Part shown: positions 5,629 through 42,705 of the stretch, piece after piece
How positions within the stretch are numbered: the first letter of the stretch is position 1
How the letters are laid out: each line of letters starts with the position of its first letter
Origin: a virus
Taxonomy: Duplodnaviria; Heunggongvirae; Uroviricota; Caudoviricetes
IMG/VR virus record: IMGVR_UViG_2778261632_000005
Location: 1 to 42,705 of that record
Strand: one strand, 5' to 3'
DNA: 42,705 nucleotides
Notes under the pieces: model-generated
Seen by the model: only the letters and a program-made list of their open reading frames with translations
Databases searched by the model: none
Told to the model about the DNA's origin: nothing
Translations under genes and position numbers: made by a program

Positions 5629-5705
5629 TGGTGCAGCATGCAGGATTCGAACCTGCGACCCACGGCTTAGAAGGCCGCTGCTCTATCCATCTGAGCTAAT
5701 GCCAC
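5629..5705 (-). tRNA. tRNA-Arg (anticodon UCU), prophage-borne
   Basis: 77-nt cloverleaf read on the minus strand: D-arm GCTC/GAGC, anticodon loop CUUCUAA, T-arm GCAGG-UUCGAAU-CCUGC, 3' ACCA; the acceptor stem has two adjacent G-U pairs. Confidence 0.8.
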
Positions 5706-5885: not shown

Positions 5886-6386
5886 ATGGACAACAAATGG
5901 TTGCAGGAAGTACTGCGTTCAATCCTGCGTGACATAGACATTAGGCGTTTAATGCATATGCTAATCATTTTCGTCATTCTCACGGTGCTTTTGCCTGACT
6001 CTGTTAAGCAGTCTGTTGGTGCTCATAATCCGGAATTCCTTCCAGCTTTCAGCCTCTACTATCTGATGATCATCTGCGTAAGTTTTTTTATTTCTTCGCT
6101 TACCAGCTTCACTACTAAATCTCTTTTAAATGCGCTTCATACATTGGCTTTACGTATTCGAGTCATCATGCTTTCAGAACCTGAAAAGCAGTGCCTTCTG
6201 TCTTTCATAAAGACCGGTGACCATGTTGTGTATGCAAAAAATCACAATCCGGTGGTTGAGCAGTTGGTCTATAAAGGCATTCTTAGGAAAACCTACTCAC
6301 TAAATTGTGGCCCAGACATGGAAGGGTACGTCATAGAAGACAAATATCATTTCCACGTGTTAAGGCACTTATCTACCAGTCTTTGA
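5886..6386 (+). CDS. Membrane protein, putative superinfection-exclusion / abortive-infection candidate
   Basis: 166 aa ORF in an AT-rich island; two predicted TM helices then an 80-aa soluble domain; weak RBS; lies between the tRNA and the repressor. Confidence 0.5.
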   Translation: MDNKWLQEVLRSILRDIDIRRLMHMLIIFVILTVLLPDSVKQSVGAHNPEFLPAFSLYYLMIICVSFFISSLTSFTTKSLLNALHTLALRIRVIMLSEPEKQCLLSFIKTGDHVVYAKNHNPVVEQLVYKGILRKTYSLNCGPDMEGYVIEDKYHFHVLRHLSTSL

Positions 6387-16753: not shown

Positions 16754-17017
16754 TCATTACAAAGCTCATCTGCTGGTGGACTATAAACAGATAGCATTAC
16801 AGCAGGCATTCACTGAGTGCCTGTGATAATGTCAAATTGTGGTGAATGCGCAGGCTGATGCGCGTGCAACAGCTACTCATTGAAACGGTAGTTATGTCGG
16901 AGTTCAGCACCGGCCACCACACCTAATTGAATTGTCAGTGGCTAGGGTAGCTCCTGAAAAGCGGCATCGTCACCGCCTGCCACTGATAACATGACGAGCA
17001 ACTAAGACGAGGTTGTG

Positions 17018-36366: not shown

Positions 36367-36417
36367 TCAATATCAAATCAACCTGCCGAGGCGAGTTGTT
36401 TCTTTTATGAGGCCCAT

Positions 36418-38514
36418 ATGACCACTTATAACACCGGCAATCCGCTGGGGTCTGCTGCTGCAAAAGATTTATACGATAACGCTCAGAACTTTGATCATCT
36501 GTCGAATGATCTTGAAAATGAGATGTGGCCTGACCGATTTGGGAAGAGCAGGTTAACTTGGCATGGAATGGAAAAAAGATACCAGGAAAAGCTGGTGTCT
36601 ATGGGGTGGGAACTGATTGATTCATTTCAGGGAGGAACTACGTTAACGAGGGCAGATCAGGCGTTGCGTTGGGAATTACCTGATGGGGATGGAGAGTATT
36701 ACCGCTGGGATGGCTCTCTGCCTAAAACAGTCCCTGCCGGTTCTACACCAGATTCAACAGGTGGTGTTGGCACTGGCGCATGGGTTGGAGTTGGTGATGC
36801 ATCTCTTAGATCTGATCTAACAAAATATGGTGCAACGGTTGACCAGATAGCGCATCGGGTTACAACACTGAAATCTTTTGAAGAGTTTGGTGCGATTGGA
36901 GATGGGGTTACTAATGATACAGCCTCGATGCTGGCAGCGCTGGAATGGCTGAAAGATGTCCCTTTCGGTAAATTGGTTGGCAGACCTGGCGCAAATTATC
37001 TAATCACACAAAGCCTCGTCATGAAATTTGACGGCTCATACACTCAAGATGTAACGTCAACTCGCTATCTGGATTTTACTGGGACAGTGATTGTGGCAGG
37101 CGCCGATAATATCACTTGCATTCGCATGAGCCATGATTTCTGCCATATCATCAATCCTGTAGTAATTAACCCAAATAACTATTCCGACGTTATCGCCTAC
37201 GCTATTGCACCAGAAACCGAATCTCAGACTACCATACGCGTGTCACAGCAATTCTGTGTAATGGAGAATCCACGAGCACGGGGAACTAAGATAGGCCTTA
37301 AGTTTAAACCAGGGCCTACAGTCGGTGGGAGTAATAGCGGTGCGTATTACCACTCAATTATGAATCCTAATTTTGAGAGAGTGGATTGCGGATTCTATTT
37401 CGAGCGCAGCGTAAGCGGAGACAATAACAACACAAGGATTCATATCTTCAATCCAGTTCATATAACCGGTAACTGTGCTTTTTGGATCGAAAGCACTGAC
37501 TCACTACGCGTTTACGGTGGATCATGTGAAAATATCACATTGGGAACCTGGCCGGCTGACGTGCCATGCGCAGTCCGTGTTGTAAAAACAGTAAGCACAG
37601 ATACACAGGTCGCTGGAAACCTACATTTCTACGGATATCTTGGAGAAGTTTGTCACAGAGCCTATCAAATAGATACAAATGTAGGAACCTACGAAAACTA
37701 CTTTGATTGGAAATGGGTATTAATTAATGAAAACCCATATCGCGCACCAGGACAGGATGGGAATTTCGTAGCACGATTTGATGGGGAAATTCTTAGTAGT
37801 AGCTGGGACAACAGTGCTCTTAACGTAGTAGGGTGTAGAAACCCACATACAGGACATCAGGCAATAATCATCCAAAATCCAGATGAGACGCCAGCAGAAC
37901 TTTGGAGTAATACTGGGTGGAAATTTACCGCAACAATTTACGATTGCCCGGCACAAAATTTACAACATAGTAATAGCCATGAACAGATATTAGGGGCATT
38001 GTATGCTGGATTGACGCTTACAACCTATCCTGATAGCAGGAGAATAATGTTAACAAGCAAGGAGGGGGCTGATGGGGTTGAGAGACCACAAAATGATCTG
38101 ATAATTAATGGATTTAACAGGCTATGTGCAGAAAATGATAATGATACCGCTCTTGGTGATTCTGATAGACGGTGGAGTGTTGTTTATGCAGCTACTAGTT
38201 CAATAGTTACATCTGATGAGGAGCATAAAACCTCTTTTCTATCAGATGATAATACTTTAGAAAGAGAGAAGAAGGCAGCTAAGGAAATTAAAAGCTGTAT
38301 ATTTCGGTATAAGTTTAAAAAAAGCATTGATAAAAAAGGAGAGGGGGCCCGTCTTCATTATGGAGTGGGGGCGCAAACTGTTGGCGAAATTATGAGGAAG
38401 TATGACCTGAATCCGGATAATTATGCTTTTTGGTGCAGAAACAAAACAAATGAAGGCGATAGGTATGGTATCAGATACGAAGAGTTAATTATGTTTCTGA
38501 TGGTTAACGCATAA
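36418..38514 (+). CDS. Tailspike / side tail fibre with C-terminal intramolecular chaperone-like domain
   Basis: 698 aa; central region looks like a beta-helix depolymerase domain; C-terminal 110 aa resembles peptidase-S74 autoproteolytic chaperone domains (TSSIVTSDEEHKT ... GARLHYGVGAQTVGEIM ... YGIRYEELIMF). Confidence 0.6.
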   Translation: MTTYNTGNPLGSAAAKDLYDNAQNFDHLSNDLENEMWPDRFGKSRLTWHGMEKRYQEKLVSMGWELIDSFQGGTTLTRADQALRWELPDGDGEYYRWDGSLPKTVPAGSTPDSTGGVGTGAWVGVGDASLRSDLTKYGATVDQIAHRVTTLKSFEEFGAIGDGVTNDTASMLAALEWLKDVPFGKLVGRPGANYLITQSLVMKFDGSYTQDVTSTRYLDFTGTVIVAGADNITCIRMSHDFCHIINPVVINPNNYSDVIAYAIAPETESQTTIRVSQQFCVMENPRARGTKIGLKFKPGPTVGGSNSGAYYHSIMNPNFERVDCGFYFERSVSGDNNNTRIHIFNPVHITGNCAFWIESTDSLRVYGGSCENITLGTWPADVPCAVRVVKTVSTDTQVAGNLHFYGYLGEVCHRAYQIDTNVGTYENYFDWKWVLINENPYRAPGQDGNFVARFDGEILSSSWDNSALNVVGCRNPHTGHQAIIIQNPDETPAELWSNTGWKFTATIYDCPAQNLQHSNSHEQILGALYAGLTLTTYPDSRRIMLTSKEGADGVERPQNDLIINGFNRLCAENDNDTALGDSDRRWSVVYAATSSIVTSDEEHKTSFLSDDNTLEREKKAAKEIKSCIFRYKFKKSIDKKGEGARLHYGVGAQTVGEIMRKYDLNPDNYAFWCRNKTNEGDRYGIRYEELIMFLMVNA

Positions 38515-38525
38515 GTAAATTAATA

Positions 38526-38553
38526 CCCCCCGCACTATATAATTATACGGGGG
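38526..38553. terminator. Hairpin between convergent tailspike and gtr genes (possible bidirectional terminator)
   Basis: CCCCCG / CGGGGG stem flanking an AT-rich 15-nt loop. Confidence 0.45.
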
Positions 38554-38558
38554 TTATA

Positions 38559-39995
38559 TTAGAATCTAATAACTACAATATTATCAACGAGATATATTGC
38601 AAATACATTACCTGCATATAAGGTGGTTTTGTCATTTGCTTTTAGTAAAATTTCATCACGTTTATCATTATTTGCATAGGTAATATCATTTAGCCCGTTC
38701 CTCATTAAAATAAATCTTCCACCATCATAACCCCAAGAAAATGTGTCAAGCATCATGTTATTCATGAATGGATAAATGTTAATGGTTGACTCCATGACTC
38801 CAGAATGTTGTGGGCGCCCATCAATAATAAATTCTTTATGCTTTGATAAATTCAACCTGTCAAGATTACTCACTATCCTGGTTGCTAAAGATTCTGCATA
38901 TCTAAAATCTTCTCGCACTGCATTTGTAGATGCACATAAAAAAAGATAATTAGTAAAGTAAAAAAATACCGCTGGCGCAAGCCATAGCCATTTACGTTTA
39001 AAAGAACAGCACAACGCATAAAGACAGAAGAAGGATGCAGCAGAAATCCCTATAATTGTTCGTGGTATGATTGATGGATTTTGCCCATACACTCCAACTC
39101 CTGGTATAAACGTGACAAGTGCACATAAAACAATAACTATCGTCAGAAAGGTAAATAATGGTTTTGTTGATCTAAAGCACATAACGCATACAGCAACAAC
39201 AAACGCAGCGCACATGATTGCAATCGGGTATAAAAATGGTGAGTCTAGTAGTTTTAAAATGAGTATGTATGAGTTTTTGTAATTATTAAGAACTGTTTCA
39301 AGTCCCGAATAAGTCAATGGAACGATTTTATTGAAATTCAAAAAGTAATAACTTACATTAGTTATTGGGATAATAACTTTAAGGTATGCTATAGTGCCTA
39401 AAAGAAATGTTAAAGCTCTAATTATCAATACTTTGGTTATGTTTTTATAATTTTCTTTTTTTACATAAGCTCCCATGAATATCTCAATAGCGGATAGACA
39501 TATAAATAGTGCTATTGCAGCTTGGTAAAGAGAAAGGCTGGCAACAAGAGCCGTTACTGACAAAACAAAAGAAGATATTTTGTTAGTGTGTAAAATATAA
39601 GGCGTAATTGCCATGGTTACAGATAGAACCATAAAGAAGGAATCATATCTGAATAATAAATTAGAAACAAAAAAAGGAGATGCTAAGAAGCATAAAGATA
39701 GCACTATTGCTTTAATCCCTTTGCTCCCTATAAAGTATTCACATACTTTTAAAGATACTGCACTATAAAGGATTAATGCCAGAATTGTCATTCCTGGGAA
39801 GTAGTCAGGAAGAACATCTCCTGTAGTAATTGTTCTATATATAGCTTCTGCAAGAGGTCGTCCATCTCCTTGCCATCCATAATATGACCATACCGACCTA
39901 AATATGTCGTCATTATAATAACTAGTTCCTAACAGTAATGGAATGGCATAAAATAATGTCAGTCCAGCAGCAATAACTATATGTCTATTAGGCAT
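38559..39995 (-). CDS. Serotype-specific O-antigen glucosyltransferase, GtrC-like polytopic membrane protein
   Basis: 478 aa, about 10 predicted TM helices, strongly AT-rich coding sequence, immediately downstream of gtrA-gtrB. Confidence 0.75.
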   Translation of the reverse strand: MPNRHIVIAAGLTLFYAIPLLLGTSYYNDDIFRSVWSYYGWQGDGRPLAEAIYRTITTGDVLPDYFPGMTILALILYSAVSLKVCEYFIGSKGIKAIVLSLCFLASPFFVSNLLFRYDSFFMVLSVTMAITPYILHTNKISSFVLSVTALVASLSLYQAAIALFICLSAIEIFMGAYVKKENYKNITKVLIIRALTFLLGTIAYLKVIIPITNVSYYFLNFNKIVPLTYSGLETVLNNYKNSYILILKLLDSPFLYPIAIMCAAFVVAVCVMCFRSTKPLFTFLTIVIVLCALVTFIPGVGVYGQNPSIIPRTIIGISAASFFCLYALCCSFKRKWLWLAPAVFFYFTNYLFLCASTNAVREDFRYAESLATRIVSNLDRLNLSKHKEFIIDGRPQHSGVMESTINIYPFMNNMMLDTFSWGYDGGRFILMRNGLNDITYANNDKRDEILLKANDKTTLYAGNVFAIYLVDNIVVIRF

Positions 39996-39999
39996 GATA

Positions 40000-40920
40000 T
40001 TACCTCTTATTCTTCTTTATAAGATATTTTGGCCTTTTTTTGGTTTCTAAATATATTCTACCAATATACTCACCAAGTACTCCAATTCCTATTAATTGAA
40101 TTCCACCAAGAAACAGAATAGACACTAGCAGGGATGGATAGCCCCGTACGGCGTTACCAAACGCTAAAGTGTTGAATATCATCCAGGCGCCATACAAAAA
40201 AGCGCAACCGGCTACCACTAGCCCAATATACGTCCAGATGCGAAGCGGGAAGGTCGAGAAAGAAGTTATGCCTTCTAGTGCTAAATTCCATAGTTTCCAG
40301 CCATTAAATTTTGAGTCTCCGGCAACACGTTCAGCTCTTGCATACTCAACAACATCAATTTTCCCACCAACCCATGACAAAACACCTTTCATGAAGAGAT
40401 TGCGCTCAGGAAGCAGTTTGATGTTTTCAACAACTTCGCGTGACATCAGGCGAAAATCACCCACGTTCTCTTCAATTTTTGGGTTGCTAATTTTGTTGTG
40501 TAGCTTGTAGAACCACTCAGCAGATTTGCGCTTTAGCCTTCCATCGGTAGAGCGGTCTGTTCTTTTAGCCAGAACCATATCAGCGCCATCCTGCCACTTA
40601 GCAATGAGGTGCGGGATGACATCGATAGGGTCTTGCAGATCAACATCGATTGGGATGACTGCTTCGCCGGTAGCATTATCGAGACCTGCGAATAGGGCAG
40701 GCTCTTTACCAAAGTTTCTGGTGAAAGATAGAGGTACCACCAATTTGTCAGAGACAGCAAGTGCATTGATGATGGATTCTGTTGAATCGCTGCTCCCGTC
40801 GTTAATAAATACAATCTCAATGTCGTACTCTTTTAGGCCTTCAAACTCGCGTACCGTTTTATAAAATATAGGTATTGTGGCCTCTTCGTTAAAGACCGGA
40901 ACAACTAAAGAAATTTTCAT
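40000..40920 (-). CDS. gtrB: Bactoprenol glucosyltransferase GtrB (GT2)
   Basis: 306 aa; GT2 motifs ([24 protein letters not shown]) and two C-terminal TM helices. Confidence 0.85.
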
Positions 40921-41279
40921 TTCGCATCCCTAAAGACAATGAATTTCGAGTAAATAAATCCGCATACCAAGCTGATCGCGGAAAAAGCAACCAGGGTGAC
41001 AATAGGTGGGAGTGCGCACAAATCAGCCCCCCAGCCAACAGCAGCGCTTAATGATCCCATAAAACCGACATATAACATGTAGCGCAGCATTGTTGTCGAT
41101 GAATTGAATGTGAATTTGGCATTGGCATAAAAACTGAACGATACAGCTACGGCAAATCCAGCCAGGTTCGCTAGAGCCTGATTTGTGTGCAATACGTAGA
41201 TGCAGATTGCAAACACAACCCAGTGGATAAGCGTATTGATGATGCCGATAGATGTGTACTTAGCGAATAGCTTTAACAT
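40917..41279 (-). CDS. gtrA: GtrA flippase-like small membrane protein
   Basis: 120 aa from MLKLFAKYT, 4 predicted TM helices; stop overlaps the gtrB start; ORF open to 41342. Confidence 0.8.
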
Positions 41280-41495
41280 TATAAAAATCAGTGAATTCTT
41301 AGAGGCCGAAAGTTTAGCATTTGAAAGTGGATCGATCGACATATCATGTTAATTTGGTGAGACAAAAACGGGATACACAAAGCTTTGCATCGGTTTGCAA
41401 GGCTTTGCAGTGCCCACCTATGACACATTCTCATGAAGAGCTCAGCAGTAATTATTGATAGGCAGCGCCGCATTGATCTGCAATCATTTTAAAAC

Positions 41496-41515
41496 TACTG
41501 TATATAAAAACAGTA
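41496..41515 (+). promoter_or_regulatory. LexA operator (SOS box)
   Basis: TACTGTATATAAAAACAGTA matches CTGT-N8-ACAG; lies 18 nt upstream of the next ORF. Confidence 0.8.
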
Positions 41516-41532
41516 AAAGATTGGTGAAAATC

Positions 41533-41772
41533 ATGCCACGCCGTTCAGATATTAACGCTGCATTTTCGTCAGCAGTACAACAAAACCAGAAAGGATATCA
41601 GTGCTTACGCACAGACGACTTCATCCGAGAGTTAGCGAAAGTGCACTGGCATTTCAGCCGTGTCGATGCTAACTCCTGGATAGAGCGATACCAGCCAGAT
41701 TTTGCCGACAAGACCACGGACAACAGTGATAACCGTTACTGGATCCTGCGCAATATGGGAAGGGTATTCTAA
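41533..41772 (+). CDS. Small SOS-box-preceded protein upstream of a UmuD-like gene (ImpC-like by position)
   Basis: 79 aa; stop overlaps the downstream ATG; the ImpC label is an inference from operon architecture, not from sequence. Confidence 0.45.
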   Translation: MPRRSDINAAFSSAVQQNQKGYQCLRTDDFIRELAKVHWHFSRVDANSWIERYQPDFADKTTDNSDNRYWILRNMGRVF

Positions 41773-42160
41773 TGGGATTTACTTCACCTGCAGCAGATTA
41801 CGTTGAAACAAGGATTTCCCTTGATCAGCAGTTTATCAGTCAGCCCGCAGCGACTTACTTTATGCGAGCATCACGTTCACATTTCAGGTAAGGGATAATC
41901 CTGGGGGCGCTGCTTGTTGTGATGCGTCACTTTCTCCATGTGATGGCTCGTTGCTGATATGCGCGATAGACGGAGAATTCAGGATCAAGCGATATCGGAC
42001 TCATCCTCAGCCCCACCTGGTTAATCTGGAGAACGGGAGAAGGGAGGCGCTGCCAGCAGATGATGACGGTTACAGTTCTGCACCCGCTATATTCGGAGTG
42101 ATCACGTACATCATTAATGATGCCAGGAACGCGGAGTTTGATGACTGCCCGGTAATGTGA
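41772..42160 (+). pseudogene. UmuD/ImpA-like S24 peptidase gene, apparently disrupted
   Basis: N-terminus MGFTSPAADYVETRISLDQQF...ATYFMRAS ends at TAA (41889-41891); the C-terminal part (AIDGEFRIKRY...FGVITYIIND) continues in another frame; no umuC-like gene follows. Confidence 0.6.
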
Positions 42161-42528
42161 ATAGCTTAAATTGTGCGAGGATTTTAACCTCATTCACCTG
42201 ACTCGTTATGGCTATGTTGAGACCAAAAAATATTTCACCATTGTACCTCCTAGATGATTATAAGTTATTGATTAAGTTGATCTTAAAATCATGAATTATT
42301 GGCGAAAAAACGGTGTAACTTGTTGATAGTGCTTGATAACACGCATGATTTAAAATCCCTTTATCGTGAAAGGGCTGATAGGTACAGGCACTTGTTTTTG
42401 CCCTCTAAAACGGTTATCAAAACCAAAAAACACACATTGATAATCAATCGGTTAGGGGAATGCTGAAAGCCAGTTGATTTACAATAAAATTATAGAATTA
42501 TTTTTATTTATCATGTGGTTGTATATGA

Positions 42529-42705
42529 AGCATCTAACTACTGTTACGCCATATGGGTTGGACTGAAGCGGCTGACCTGATTGTTAAAGGTATGGAAGGC
42601 GCAATCAATGCGAAGACCGTAACCTATGACTTCGAACGTCTGATGGAAGGCGCTAAACTGCTGAAATGTTCAGAGTTTGGTGACGCGATCATCAAGAATA
42701 TGTAA
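42529..42705 (+). pseudogene. icd: 3' fragment of the isocitrate dehydrogenase gene (icd), prophage junction remnant
   Basis: Encodes [55 protein letters not shown], recalled as near-identical to the E. coli Icd C-terminus; an in-frame TAA lies immediately upstream, so only the 3' end is present. Confidence 0.8.

Follow-up and report, generated by a model that had tools for sequence, protein, structure and literature searches.

At the end of the lambdoid prophage in our window (the whole 42,705-nt stretch of DNA analysed), three minus-strand genes raise the question of whether they form a gtrABC cassette for O-antigen glucosylation, and whether the surface type that they would confer is a known one. 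Gtr cassettes are among the classic means of lysogenic conversion, by which O-antigen epitope, serotype, antibody recognition and phage adsorption are altered. Very probably, the locus is a moron with all three components of an O-antigen glucosylation (serotype-conversion) system intact, borne by an E. coli lambdoid prophage that is inserted at icd. The cassette is of the ordinary phage gtrABC type and only its third gene is new, being an uncharacterised variant of the enzyme that determines specificity.

The original prediction of a minus-strand operon of gtrA, gtrB and a third gene at the prophage end holds good: all three ORFs (141, 306 and 478 aa) were found, co-oriented and adjacent in the order gtrA, gtrB, type-specific transferase that defines a Gtr three-component system. 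They lie beside the tail spike and the att end, in the canonical layout of a tail-spike gene converging on gtrC-gtrB-gtrA, with the regulatory region and att/int beyond (Table 1). The predicted span was right in its ORF coordinates but had the start of gtrA mis-set by 63 nt, at 41342 (the 141-aa ORF); the corrected start is the ATG at 41279, giving 120 aa. This ATG is the PGAP call for gtrA in a 99.8%-identical genome and is aligned with the annotated gtrA starts of P22, epsilon34, SfI, SfII, SfV and SfIV; the 120-aa form covers PHROG 2224 over 1-120/120, and the 63 extra nt of the longer ORF take in promoter sequence and do not stay in frame in epsilon34. The gtrA/gtrB junction is a 4-nt overlap (ATGA), and gtrB and gtrC are spaced by 4 nt, with the Shine-Dalgarno sequence AAGAGG.

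Table 1. Features of the gtrABC region and its surroundings (positions in the window).
Feature	Coordinates	Strand	Evidence
Tail-spike gene, the phage's own receptor-binding protein, convergent with gtrC	36418..38514	+	PF18668 Tail_spike_N, PF13884, tail spike/fibre PHROGs
GC-rich hairpin, candidate bidirectional terminator	38521..38561	.	44-bp convergent gap between tail-spike gene and gtrC
gtrC, 478-aa polytopic type-specific GT-C glucosyltransferase (uncharacterised variant)	38559..39995	-	PF14264/PHROG 4829
gtrB, undecaprenyl-phosphate glucose synthase, GT2 domain and two C-terminal transmembrane helices	40000..40920	-	PF00535, GtrB identity, 5EKP
gtrA, 120-aa small membrane protein, proposed Und-P-Glc flippase	40917..41279	-	PF04138, PHROG 2224, PGAP start
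gtr core promoter (predicted)	41304..41339	-	Homology to mapped P22 promoter; alignments with P22, epsilon34 and Sf phages
Conserved hairpin and U-run upstream of promoter, terminator/insulator-like	41363..41415	-	Alignments, folding
orf79, divergent, unknown function	41533-41772	+	PGAP annotation
humD/umuD-like pseudogene	41772-42160	+	PGAP; in-frame stops and frameshift
icd 3′ fragment, prophage/chromosome junction (attR side)	42538..42705	+	PGAP of 99.8%-identical genome; Iso_dh C-terminal match

The first two proteins are those that had been predicted. GtrA is a ~120-aa membrane protein of the GtrA/DPMS family; it matches PF04138 (E = 9e-14) and PHROG 2224 (E = 2e-65), is 75-78% identical to the GtrA of P22 and the Sf phages, and is proposed to act as the flippase. 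GtrB is a GT2 polyprenyl-phosphate glucosyltransferase (PF00535, E = 4e-31) with a DxD region and two C-terminal transmembrane helices (hydrophobic segments at ~224-252 and 264-282 in a hydropathy scan). It is 86-91% identical to GtrB of P22, epsilon34, SfI, SfII, SfIV and SfV, matches the PHROG GtrB families at E = 1e-163 to 1e-173, and aligns over its full length with the solved Synechocystis GtrB 5EKP (E = 9e-86), the PIDxDLQDP motif included (here PIDVDLQDP). This very high GtrB identity points to glucose as the donor sugar. No NCBIfam model matches GtrA or GtrC; GtrB scores under the cut-offs of both the PgfS and the ArnC equivalogs and is therefore filed under neither.

For the third gene, the prediction of a 478-aa polytopic Gtr-type transferase is upheld by family, homology and fold. 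The protein matches PF14264, its only Pfam match, and PHROG 4829; it is homologous to P22 GtrC over its full length (27% identity over 490 columns, E = 1e-40), and the motifs YYxDDxFRS, GWxxDGRP, FRYDS and LYQA are common to it, P22 GtrC and its relatives. A sequence search of PDB chains with the GtrC profile gave no match at E <= 1, and the fold was therefore tested through a predicted model, which has a GT-C fold (pLDDT 85). An acidic motif (Y26-Y27-x-D29-D30...R33) is found between the first two hydrophobic segments, in a stretch (residues 25-65) that we would equate, from the analogy to other GT-C enzymes, with the first periplasmic loop, a crude hydropathy count alone not establishing topology; GtrC is thus predicted to combine the GT-C fold with conserved acidic residues in its first extracytoplasmic loop.

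Comparison with the known Gtr types, suggested along with the original prediction, succeeded for P22 GtrC but not for GtrI, GtrIV or GtrV of Shigella flexneri (no match at E <= 10, E = 9.9 and E = 4.7 respectively), and was marginal for GtrII, which has the Pfam family in common (22% identity over 238 aa, E = 0.16). The GtrC of epsilon34 (family VIII) likewise has no significant similarity (E = 2.5). In this pairwise comparison, which covered P22 GtrC and the five types GtrI, GtrII, GtrIV, GtrV and epsilon34 GtrC, the protein had significant similarity to none of the five and thus belongs to none of them. Nor is it a member of Salmonella GtrC family I, that of P22, its 27% identity standing against the >96% general within Salmonella GtrC families (Davies et al. 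2013, PMC3688519). On sequence grounds, GtrC is a member of the P22 GtrC superfamily (PF14264, PHROG 4829) which lies outside family I, and at 27% identity the acceptor and linkage therefore cannot be transferred from P22. We also considered a ‘GtrC’ of the acyltransferase type (Salmonella family II/BTP1, OafA-like), and rejected it: Acyl_transf_3 is absent and PF14264 is the sole Pfam match. Among ~15 billion proteins, no relative is closer than 41% identity; the closest full-length ones, from Citrobacter freundii and Yersinia pseudotuberculosis (UniRef G4WJC0), are 39-41% identical (E ~1e-100 to 1e-105), yet ~60% divergent. The C. freundii protein (40%) also comes after gtrA-gtrB, in a prophage remnant, and we found no functional data in the literature on these ~40% relatives.

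Among known cassettes, P22 gtrABC (GtrC family I; Davies et al. 2013), which attaches glucose 1->6 to galactose of the O-unit (factor O:1), has the same gene order, convergent tail-spike neighbour, position beside att/int and GC pattern (gtrC 0.32, gtrAB 0.43), together with a homologous core promoter and upstream conserved block. Its GtrA and GtrB are 76% and 86% identical to those of the window, and the two GtrC proteins, for all their divergence, are colinear over their full length, with the DD, FRYDS and LYQA motifs and both family assignments shared. Unlike P22, a P22-like podovirus at thrW, the carrier here is a lambdoid prophage at icd with a tail of the tape-measure/TipJ type, and an extra orf79-humD pair stands between gtrA and att. 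The epsilon34 cassette comes nearest in gtrB (91% aa; 84.8% nt with gtrA and the upstream region counted in) and has a short regulatory region of the non-phase-variable type and the same tailspike-terminator-gtrC layout, but its GtrC (DUF6056) is unrelated and its GtrA only 55% identical. The SfI, SfII, SfIV and SfV cassettes, which also lie beside attP/int, have GtrA 78% and GtrB 86-87% identical, a short regulatory region with the conserved upstream block and the same GC pattern; they differ in the GtrC-position proteins compared above.

The strong AT bias that had been ascribed to the whole cassette is confined to gtrC: its GC content is 0.333 (z = -6.7), lower than in any 1437-bp segment elsewhere in the prophage, for which the value is 0.486 +/- 0.023 and the lowest 0.420, whereas gtrAB, at 0.432, gives only z = -2.3. 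Separate acquisition, also part of the original prediction, is supported, as the gtrC and gtrAB values equal those of six reference cassettes and homology to other cassettes stops at the gtrB/gtrC boundary. The cassette is thus of the kind carried by temperate phages beside attP/int, with GC well under that of phage and host (0.333/0.432 vs 0.486).

The module is bounded by two hairpins. Between the tail-spike gene and gtrC, the GC-rich hairpin folds at -13.3 kcal/mol on the + strand and -17.8 kcal/mol on the - strand (modest z = -1.7 and -1.8), at a place where P22 and epsilon34 have an annotated terminator. The shared gtr module has its 5′ edge at the block upstream of the promoter, which reads TTGC-N6-TTGC-N6-TTGC on the + strand; a core of 27 nt in this block does not differ between P22, epsilon34 and the window, and can still be recognised in SfI, SfII, SfV and SfIV. 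Its hairpin has a folding energy of -19.4 kcal/mol (z = -3.15; 0/200 shuffles equally stable), and among six sequences only, three of them identical, covariation was weak, amounting to one compensatory pair (consensus -4.5 kcal/mol). In the records of SfII and epsilon34 this place carries the annotation of a putative terminator or of CII-binding sites. We set aside the reading of the TTGC repeats as a CII-dependent promoter (a note in the epsilon34 record), which would fire away from gtr; the gtr-sense strand instead forms the significantly stable hairpin followed by a U-run. This block, conserved upstream of the seven gtr operons compared, could be an element that regulates or insulates the cassette and has so far gone undescribed. 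Beyond it, the orf79/humD region (41533..42160) has a PHROG 3893 match, and a humD-orf79-gtrA-gtrB module is also found in E. coli MB20 and Enterobacter phages.

How the cassette would be expressed can be judged from its promoter, where the predicted -35, TCGATC (41339-41334; a poor element, 3/6), contains the equivalent of P22 GATC4 and an abutting second GATC, and is followed by the extended -10 TGCTAAACT (41319-41311) and a predicted TSS at ~41304. The GATC at -58 from the gtrA ATG has the same position as GATC4 of P22, in which transcription starts 33 bp downstream of GATC4 and a -45..+34 fragment is intrinsically active (PMC2909390). A generic promoter/terminator scan called no more sites than in shuffled sequence, and flagged neither the gtr promoter nor, after gtrC, the hairpin with its long loop. 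That expression switches here as it does for P22 gtr, so that modified and unmodified cells would occur side by side in a population, might be thought from the retention of the GATC4 equivalent within the -35, since Dam methylation of GATC4 affects promoter strength in P22 (PMC2909390). We regard this as very improbable, however, as the Dam/OxyR type of regulation has three OxyR half-sites and four GATCs in two pairs over ~128 bp upstream of the TSS, and upstream of gtrA we found no OxyR half-site at >=8/10 and none of GATC1-3, where the P22 control gave three half-sites and four GATCs. In alignments the ~80-bp P22 segment with OxyR(A,B)/GATC1-3 is missing here, likewise in epsilon34 and the Sf phages, and gtr operons lacking this signature did not phase-vary (PMC3688519). 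With the architecture for Dam-dependent phase variation absent, the cassette is therefore probably expressed constitutively in lysogens.

In the mechanism that we propose (a model drawn from PMC7685785 and PMC11127046), GtrB would transfer glucose from UDP-Glc to undecaprenyl phosphate at the cytoplasmic face, GtrA would move the Und-P-Glc to the periplasmic face and GtrC, with its predicted GT-C fold, would put the glucose on one specific O-unit sugar, transcription from the cassette's own P22-type promoter, between candidate terminators on both sides, being probably constitutive in lysogens. The O-antigen should be the acceptor, and the expected outcome is a changed O-antigen epitope, to which phages that depend on the O-antigen, the prophage's own type among them, would adsorb less; the exclusion of other phages by the modified lysogen, as originally predicted, would likewise be expected. 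It is improbable that GtrC instead glucosylates another periplasmic glycan, such as enterobacterial common antigen, LPS core or capsule: an invariant acceptor would more easily explain occurrence across O-types, and three-component systems do act on diverse glycans (PMC11127046), but P22 GtrC and SfII GtrII, among the PF14264 members compared, are described as O-antigen glucosyltransferases, and gtrC adjoins the tail spike in the O-antigen-conversion layout of P22 and epsilon34. Transfer of a sugar other than glucose we find scarcely credible; although related systems add galactose or pentofuranoses (PMC11127046), the GtrB proteins of P22, epsilon34 and the four Shigella phages, to which this GtrB is 86-91% identical, are described as bactoprenol (undecaprenyl-phosphate) glucosyltransferases, and the PHROG GtrB matches agree.

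Of more weight is the idea that the cassette is intact but phenotypically silent hitch-hiking cargo, Und-P-Glc being made and flipped in a present host which lacks the acceptor sugar. The identical cassette occurs in two complete genomes with differing O-antigen clusters, PCP07014 (O166-family wzx/wzy) and 23CRST032 (glf/KpsS-like), so that it may lack a substrate in some hosts; SM107 has the O-cluster of 23CRST032 without the cassette; and even constitutive expression of Salmonella GtrC families II and IV failed to produce a visible shift of the LPS (PMC3688519). We nevertheless think this unlikely, if distinctly possible. GtrC is 100% conserved over ~204 collection blocks and has survived whole even beside tail-spike genes destroyed by IS elements, which argues for selection, and both O-clusters adjoin a GlcNAc-PP-Und 4-epimerase gene, so a shared GalNAc/Gal-type acceptor is possible. 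Contigs L008 and L013 keep the order xis-int-att-orf79-gtrABC-tail.

Returning to active modification of the O-antigen, we tentatively suggest that GtrC, with no relative closer than 41% identity, may define a new O-antigen glucosylation specificity, expressed constitutively and converting at least two E. coli O-types (O166-family and glf-containing) into subtypes that gene-cluster-based O-typing would miss; we put this forward as a reading that could well prove wrong. The locus introduces no new principle; it adds to the Gtr systems one uncharacterised GtrC type, apparently not phase-variable, in hosts with different O-clusters. For about half of the E. coli O-units that bear a glucose side branch, the O-antigen cluster holds no gene for a corresponding transferase (PMC7685785), and a catalogue of GtrC types linked to structures would therefore be useful, serving in-silico serotyping and glycoconjugate vaccine design.

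The window represents an icd-integrated lambdoid prophage of E. coli, in which we confirm the gtrABC cassette recognised by the original prediction and support its interpretation with minor corrections. The order of tail spike gene, gtrC-gtrB-gtrA and regulatory region follows the pattern of P22, epsilon34 and the Sf phages (SfI, SfII, SfIV and SfV). All three minus-strand ORFs proposed are present, but gtrA begins 63 nt later than proposed, at the ATG at 41279. PGAP chooses this start, it aligns with the annotated gtrA starts in the six reference phages, and it gives a 120-aa protein matching PHROG 2224 over 1-120/120; the 63-nt extension overlaps the promoter and, in epsilon34, is out of frame. 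The gtrA/gtrB junction is an ATGA overlap, and gtrB and gtrC are spaced by 4 nt with the ribosome-binding site AAGAGG.

Features of the gtr region and of the surrounding prophage
Feature	Position	Strand	Remarks
tRNA-Arg gene	5629-5705	-	anticodon TCT; prophage early region; ARAGORN; Rfam tRNA, 65.6 bits
SieB-family gene	5886-6386	+	superinfection exclusion; PF14163, E = 2e-19
int-alpA RNA family match	16935-16999	+	RF02996, 43.2 bits (gathering score 35.8)
tail spike gene	beside gtrC	+	separated from gtrC by 44-bp gap
GC-rich hairpin	in the 44-bp gap
gtrC	38559-39995	-	478 aa
gtrB	40000-40920	-	306 aa
gtrA	40917-41279	-	120 aa
extended -10	41319-41311		TGCTAAACT
-35	41339-41334		TCGATC
conserved non-coding block	41363-41415	-	upstream of promoter; at all gtr promoters examined
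orf79	41533-41772	+	79 aa, divergent from gtrA; PHROG 3893, unknown function, E = 4e-41
humD/umuD-like pseudogene	41772-42160	+	in-frame stops and frameshift
AT-rich non-coding stretch	42161-42537		0.329 GC; att junction presumably inside
icd fragment	window end, beyond humD pseudogene

Over 36400-42705 the window is 99.8% identical to two genomes, strains 23CRST032 and PCP07014, and among 5,426 complete E. coli genomes no others contain all of this stretch. Two contigs (L008 and L013) have the order xis-int-att-orf79-gtrABC-tail, which is a circular or tandem junction; thus gtr adjoins attP/int, as usual.

The GtrA-like and GtrB-like assignments are both borne out. GtrA has a PF04138 match and shares 75-78% identity with the GtrA proteins of P22 and the Shigella phages, and 55% with that of epsilon34. 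GtrB, an enzyme of the GT2 type, shares 86-91% identity with each of the six reference GtrB proteins; it has two hydrophobic segments at its C-terminus and aligns over its full length, PIDxDLQDP region included, with the solved Synechocystis GtrB (5EKP; E = 9e-86). Under the established three-component Gtr model (PMC7685785; PMC11127046), Und-P-Glc would be made by GtrB and flipped, which is thought to be the role of GtrA, and in the periplasm GtrC would then place the glucose on a particular residue of the O-unit. Because the identity to reference GtrB proteins is very high, we infer that glucose is the donor here also.

The expected kinship of the 478-aa protein with Gtr transferases holds for only part of that group. 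It matches PHROG 4829 ‘GtrC-like’ over its full length (E = 1.5e-66) and PF14264 ‘GtrII’ (E = 1e-20), a Pfam family that, among the reference enzymes compared, it has in common only with P22 GtrC and GtrII. P22 GtrC is colinear with it (27% identity, E = 1e-40), the similarity of SfII GtrII is marginal (E = 0.16), and pairwise comparison found none to GtrI, GtrIV, GtrV or epsilon34 GtrC. The conserved motifs (Y26-Y27-x-D29-D30-x-x-R33, W41...D44-G45-R46-P47, R116-Y117-D118 and Y157-Q158), all common to P22 GtrC, follow the first hydrophobic segment or lie in the helices beyond it; acidic residues that are conserved on the extracytoplasmic side, past the first transmembrane helix, are as would be expected for a GT-C active site.

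About 204 assembly-collection blocks contain this exact GtrC, with the same gtrABC and tail-gene context in all 24 contigs read; six of the eight places shown have chromosomal genes beyond icd and two an int-att junction. When 5.8 billion sequences were searched through a word index, the next relatives were only 37-40% identical; they include Yersinia pseudotuberculosis G4WJC0, several others and a Citrobacter freundii protein encoded in a prophage remnant, there too downstream of gtrA-gtrB. An exhaustive HMMER scan of 1.84 billion representatives gave 1,051 homologues at E < 1e-3, only 34 of them below 1e-30, the best full-length one being 41% identical. Since members of a Salmonella GtrC family are usually >96% identical (PMC3688519) and the nearest relatives here fall far below this, the protein ranks by that convention as a distinct, uncharacterised GtrC type.

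The AT bias ascribed to the whole cassette is strong in gtrC (0.333 GC, GC3 0.25; z = -6.7 against 0.486 +/- 0.023 for the rest of the prophage) and much less so in gtrAB (0.432 GC; z = -2.3). Because these values match those of the six reference cassettes (0.318-0.334 for gtrC and 0.423-0.446 for gtrAB), the bias is a family hallmark, carried unchanged between unrelated phage backbones. Separate acquisition is upheld, with gtrC as the exchangeable unit: nucleotide homology with other cassettes, namely epsilon34 (84.8%), Enterobacter phages and E. coli MB20 (85.6%), covers gtrB and gtrA together with the upstream region, and breaks off no more than ~10 bp from the stop codon of gtrB. MB20 carries the same humD-orf79-gtrA-gtrB module at a tRNA-Leu site, but its gtrC is a different one, truncated by IS1 (29% identity). 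This module thus recurs at a different integration site, with orf79 a constant companion of such gtrAB modules; the humD/umuD-like gene is intact in MB20 (129 aa; L025 5764-6153), and a gtrA/gtrB-umuD neighbourhood is also found in Enterobacter phages.

The 25-nt leader, extended -10 and -35 can be aligned with the gtr promoter of P22, where transcription starts 33 bp downstream of GATC4 and a -45..+34 core is intrinsically active (PMC2909390); by homology, transcription here would start near 41304. A further segment of ~80 bp in P22, which holds GATC1-3 and the OxyR half-sites A and B, is absent from the window and likewise from epsilon34 and the four Sf phages. A scan that finds three OxyR half-sites and four GATCs in P22 found no half-site of at least 8/10 in the window, which keeps only the GATC4 equivalent and one abutting GATC. 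As gtr operons without this signature did not phase-vary (PMC3688519), expression is predicted to be constitutive and not phase-variable.

The conserved block further upstream may act as a terminator/insulator or bind a protein. P22, epsilon34 and the window share an identical 27-nt core, still recognisable in the Sf phages. Read in the gtr sense, the block forms a hairpin (-19.4 kcal/mol, z = -3.15, 0/200 shuffles; covariation support is weak) followed by a U-run, GUUUUUGU, and a putative terminator is annotated at this position in the records of SfII and epsilon34; the other strand reads TTGC-N6-TTGC-N6-TTGC, and the record of epsilon34 has ‘putative CII-binding sites’ there as well. An insulating terminator is the best reading, and together with the hairpin after gtrC it would make the cassette a self-contained moron.

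In two other assemblies of the same prophage the tail spike gene is broken by IS66/ISEc8 or by several IS elements (L014 9682-14029; L011 9482-14454), and gtrABC is intact in both, with GtrC 100% identical. This speaks for selection acting on the cargo, and suggests that it persists as the prophage decays. The O-antigen clusters of the two complete genomes that carry the cassette differ: PCP07014 has O166-family wzx/wzy, and 23CRST032 a cluster with glf and a KpsS-like gene (the two clusters are those at L018 11699-22903 and L021 5941-17563). Either both O-antigens have the acceptor motif in common, or some hosts carry the cassette in a silent state. Strain SM107 has the 23CRST032 cluster without the cassette, and there is no colanic-acid (wca) cluster between yegH and galF in 23CRST032.

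The element is thus of a textbook kind, its new part being the uncharacterised GtrC variant. O-antigen change and superinfection exclusion are its predicted outcomes, and the SieB-family protein of the prophage would be a second, independent exclusion function beside the predicted O-antigen modification.
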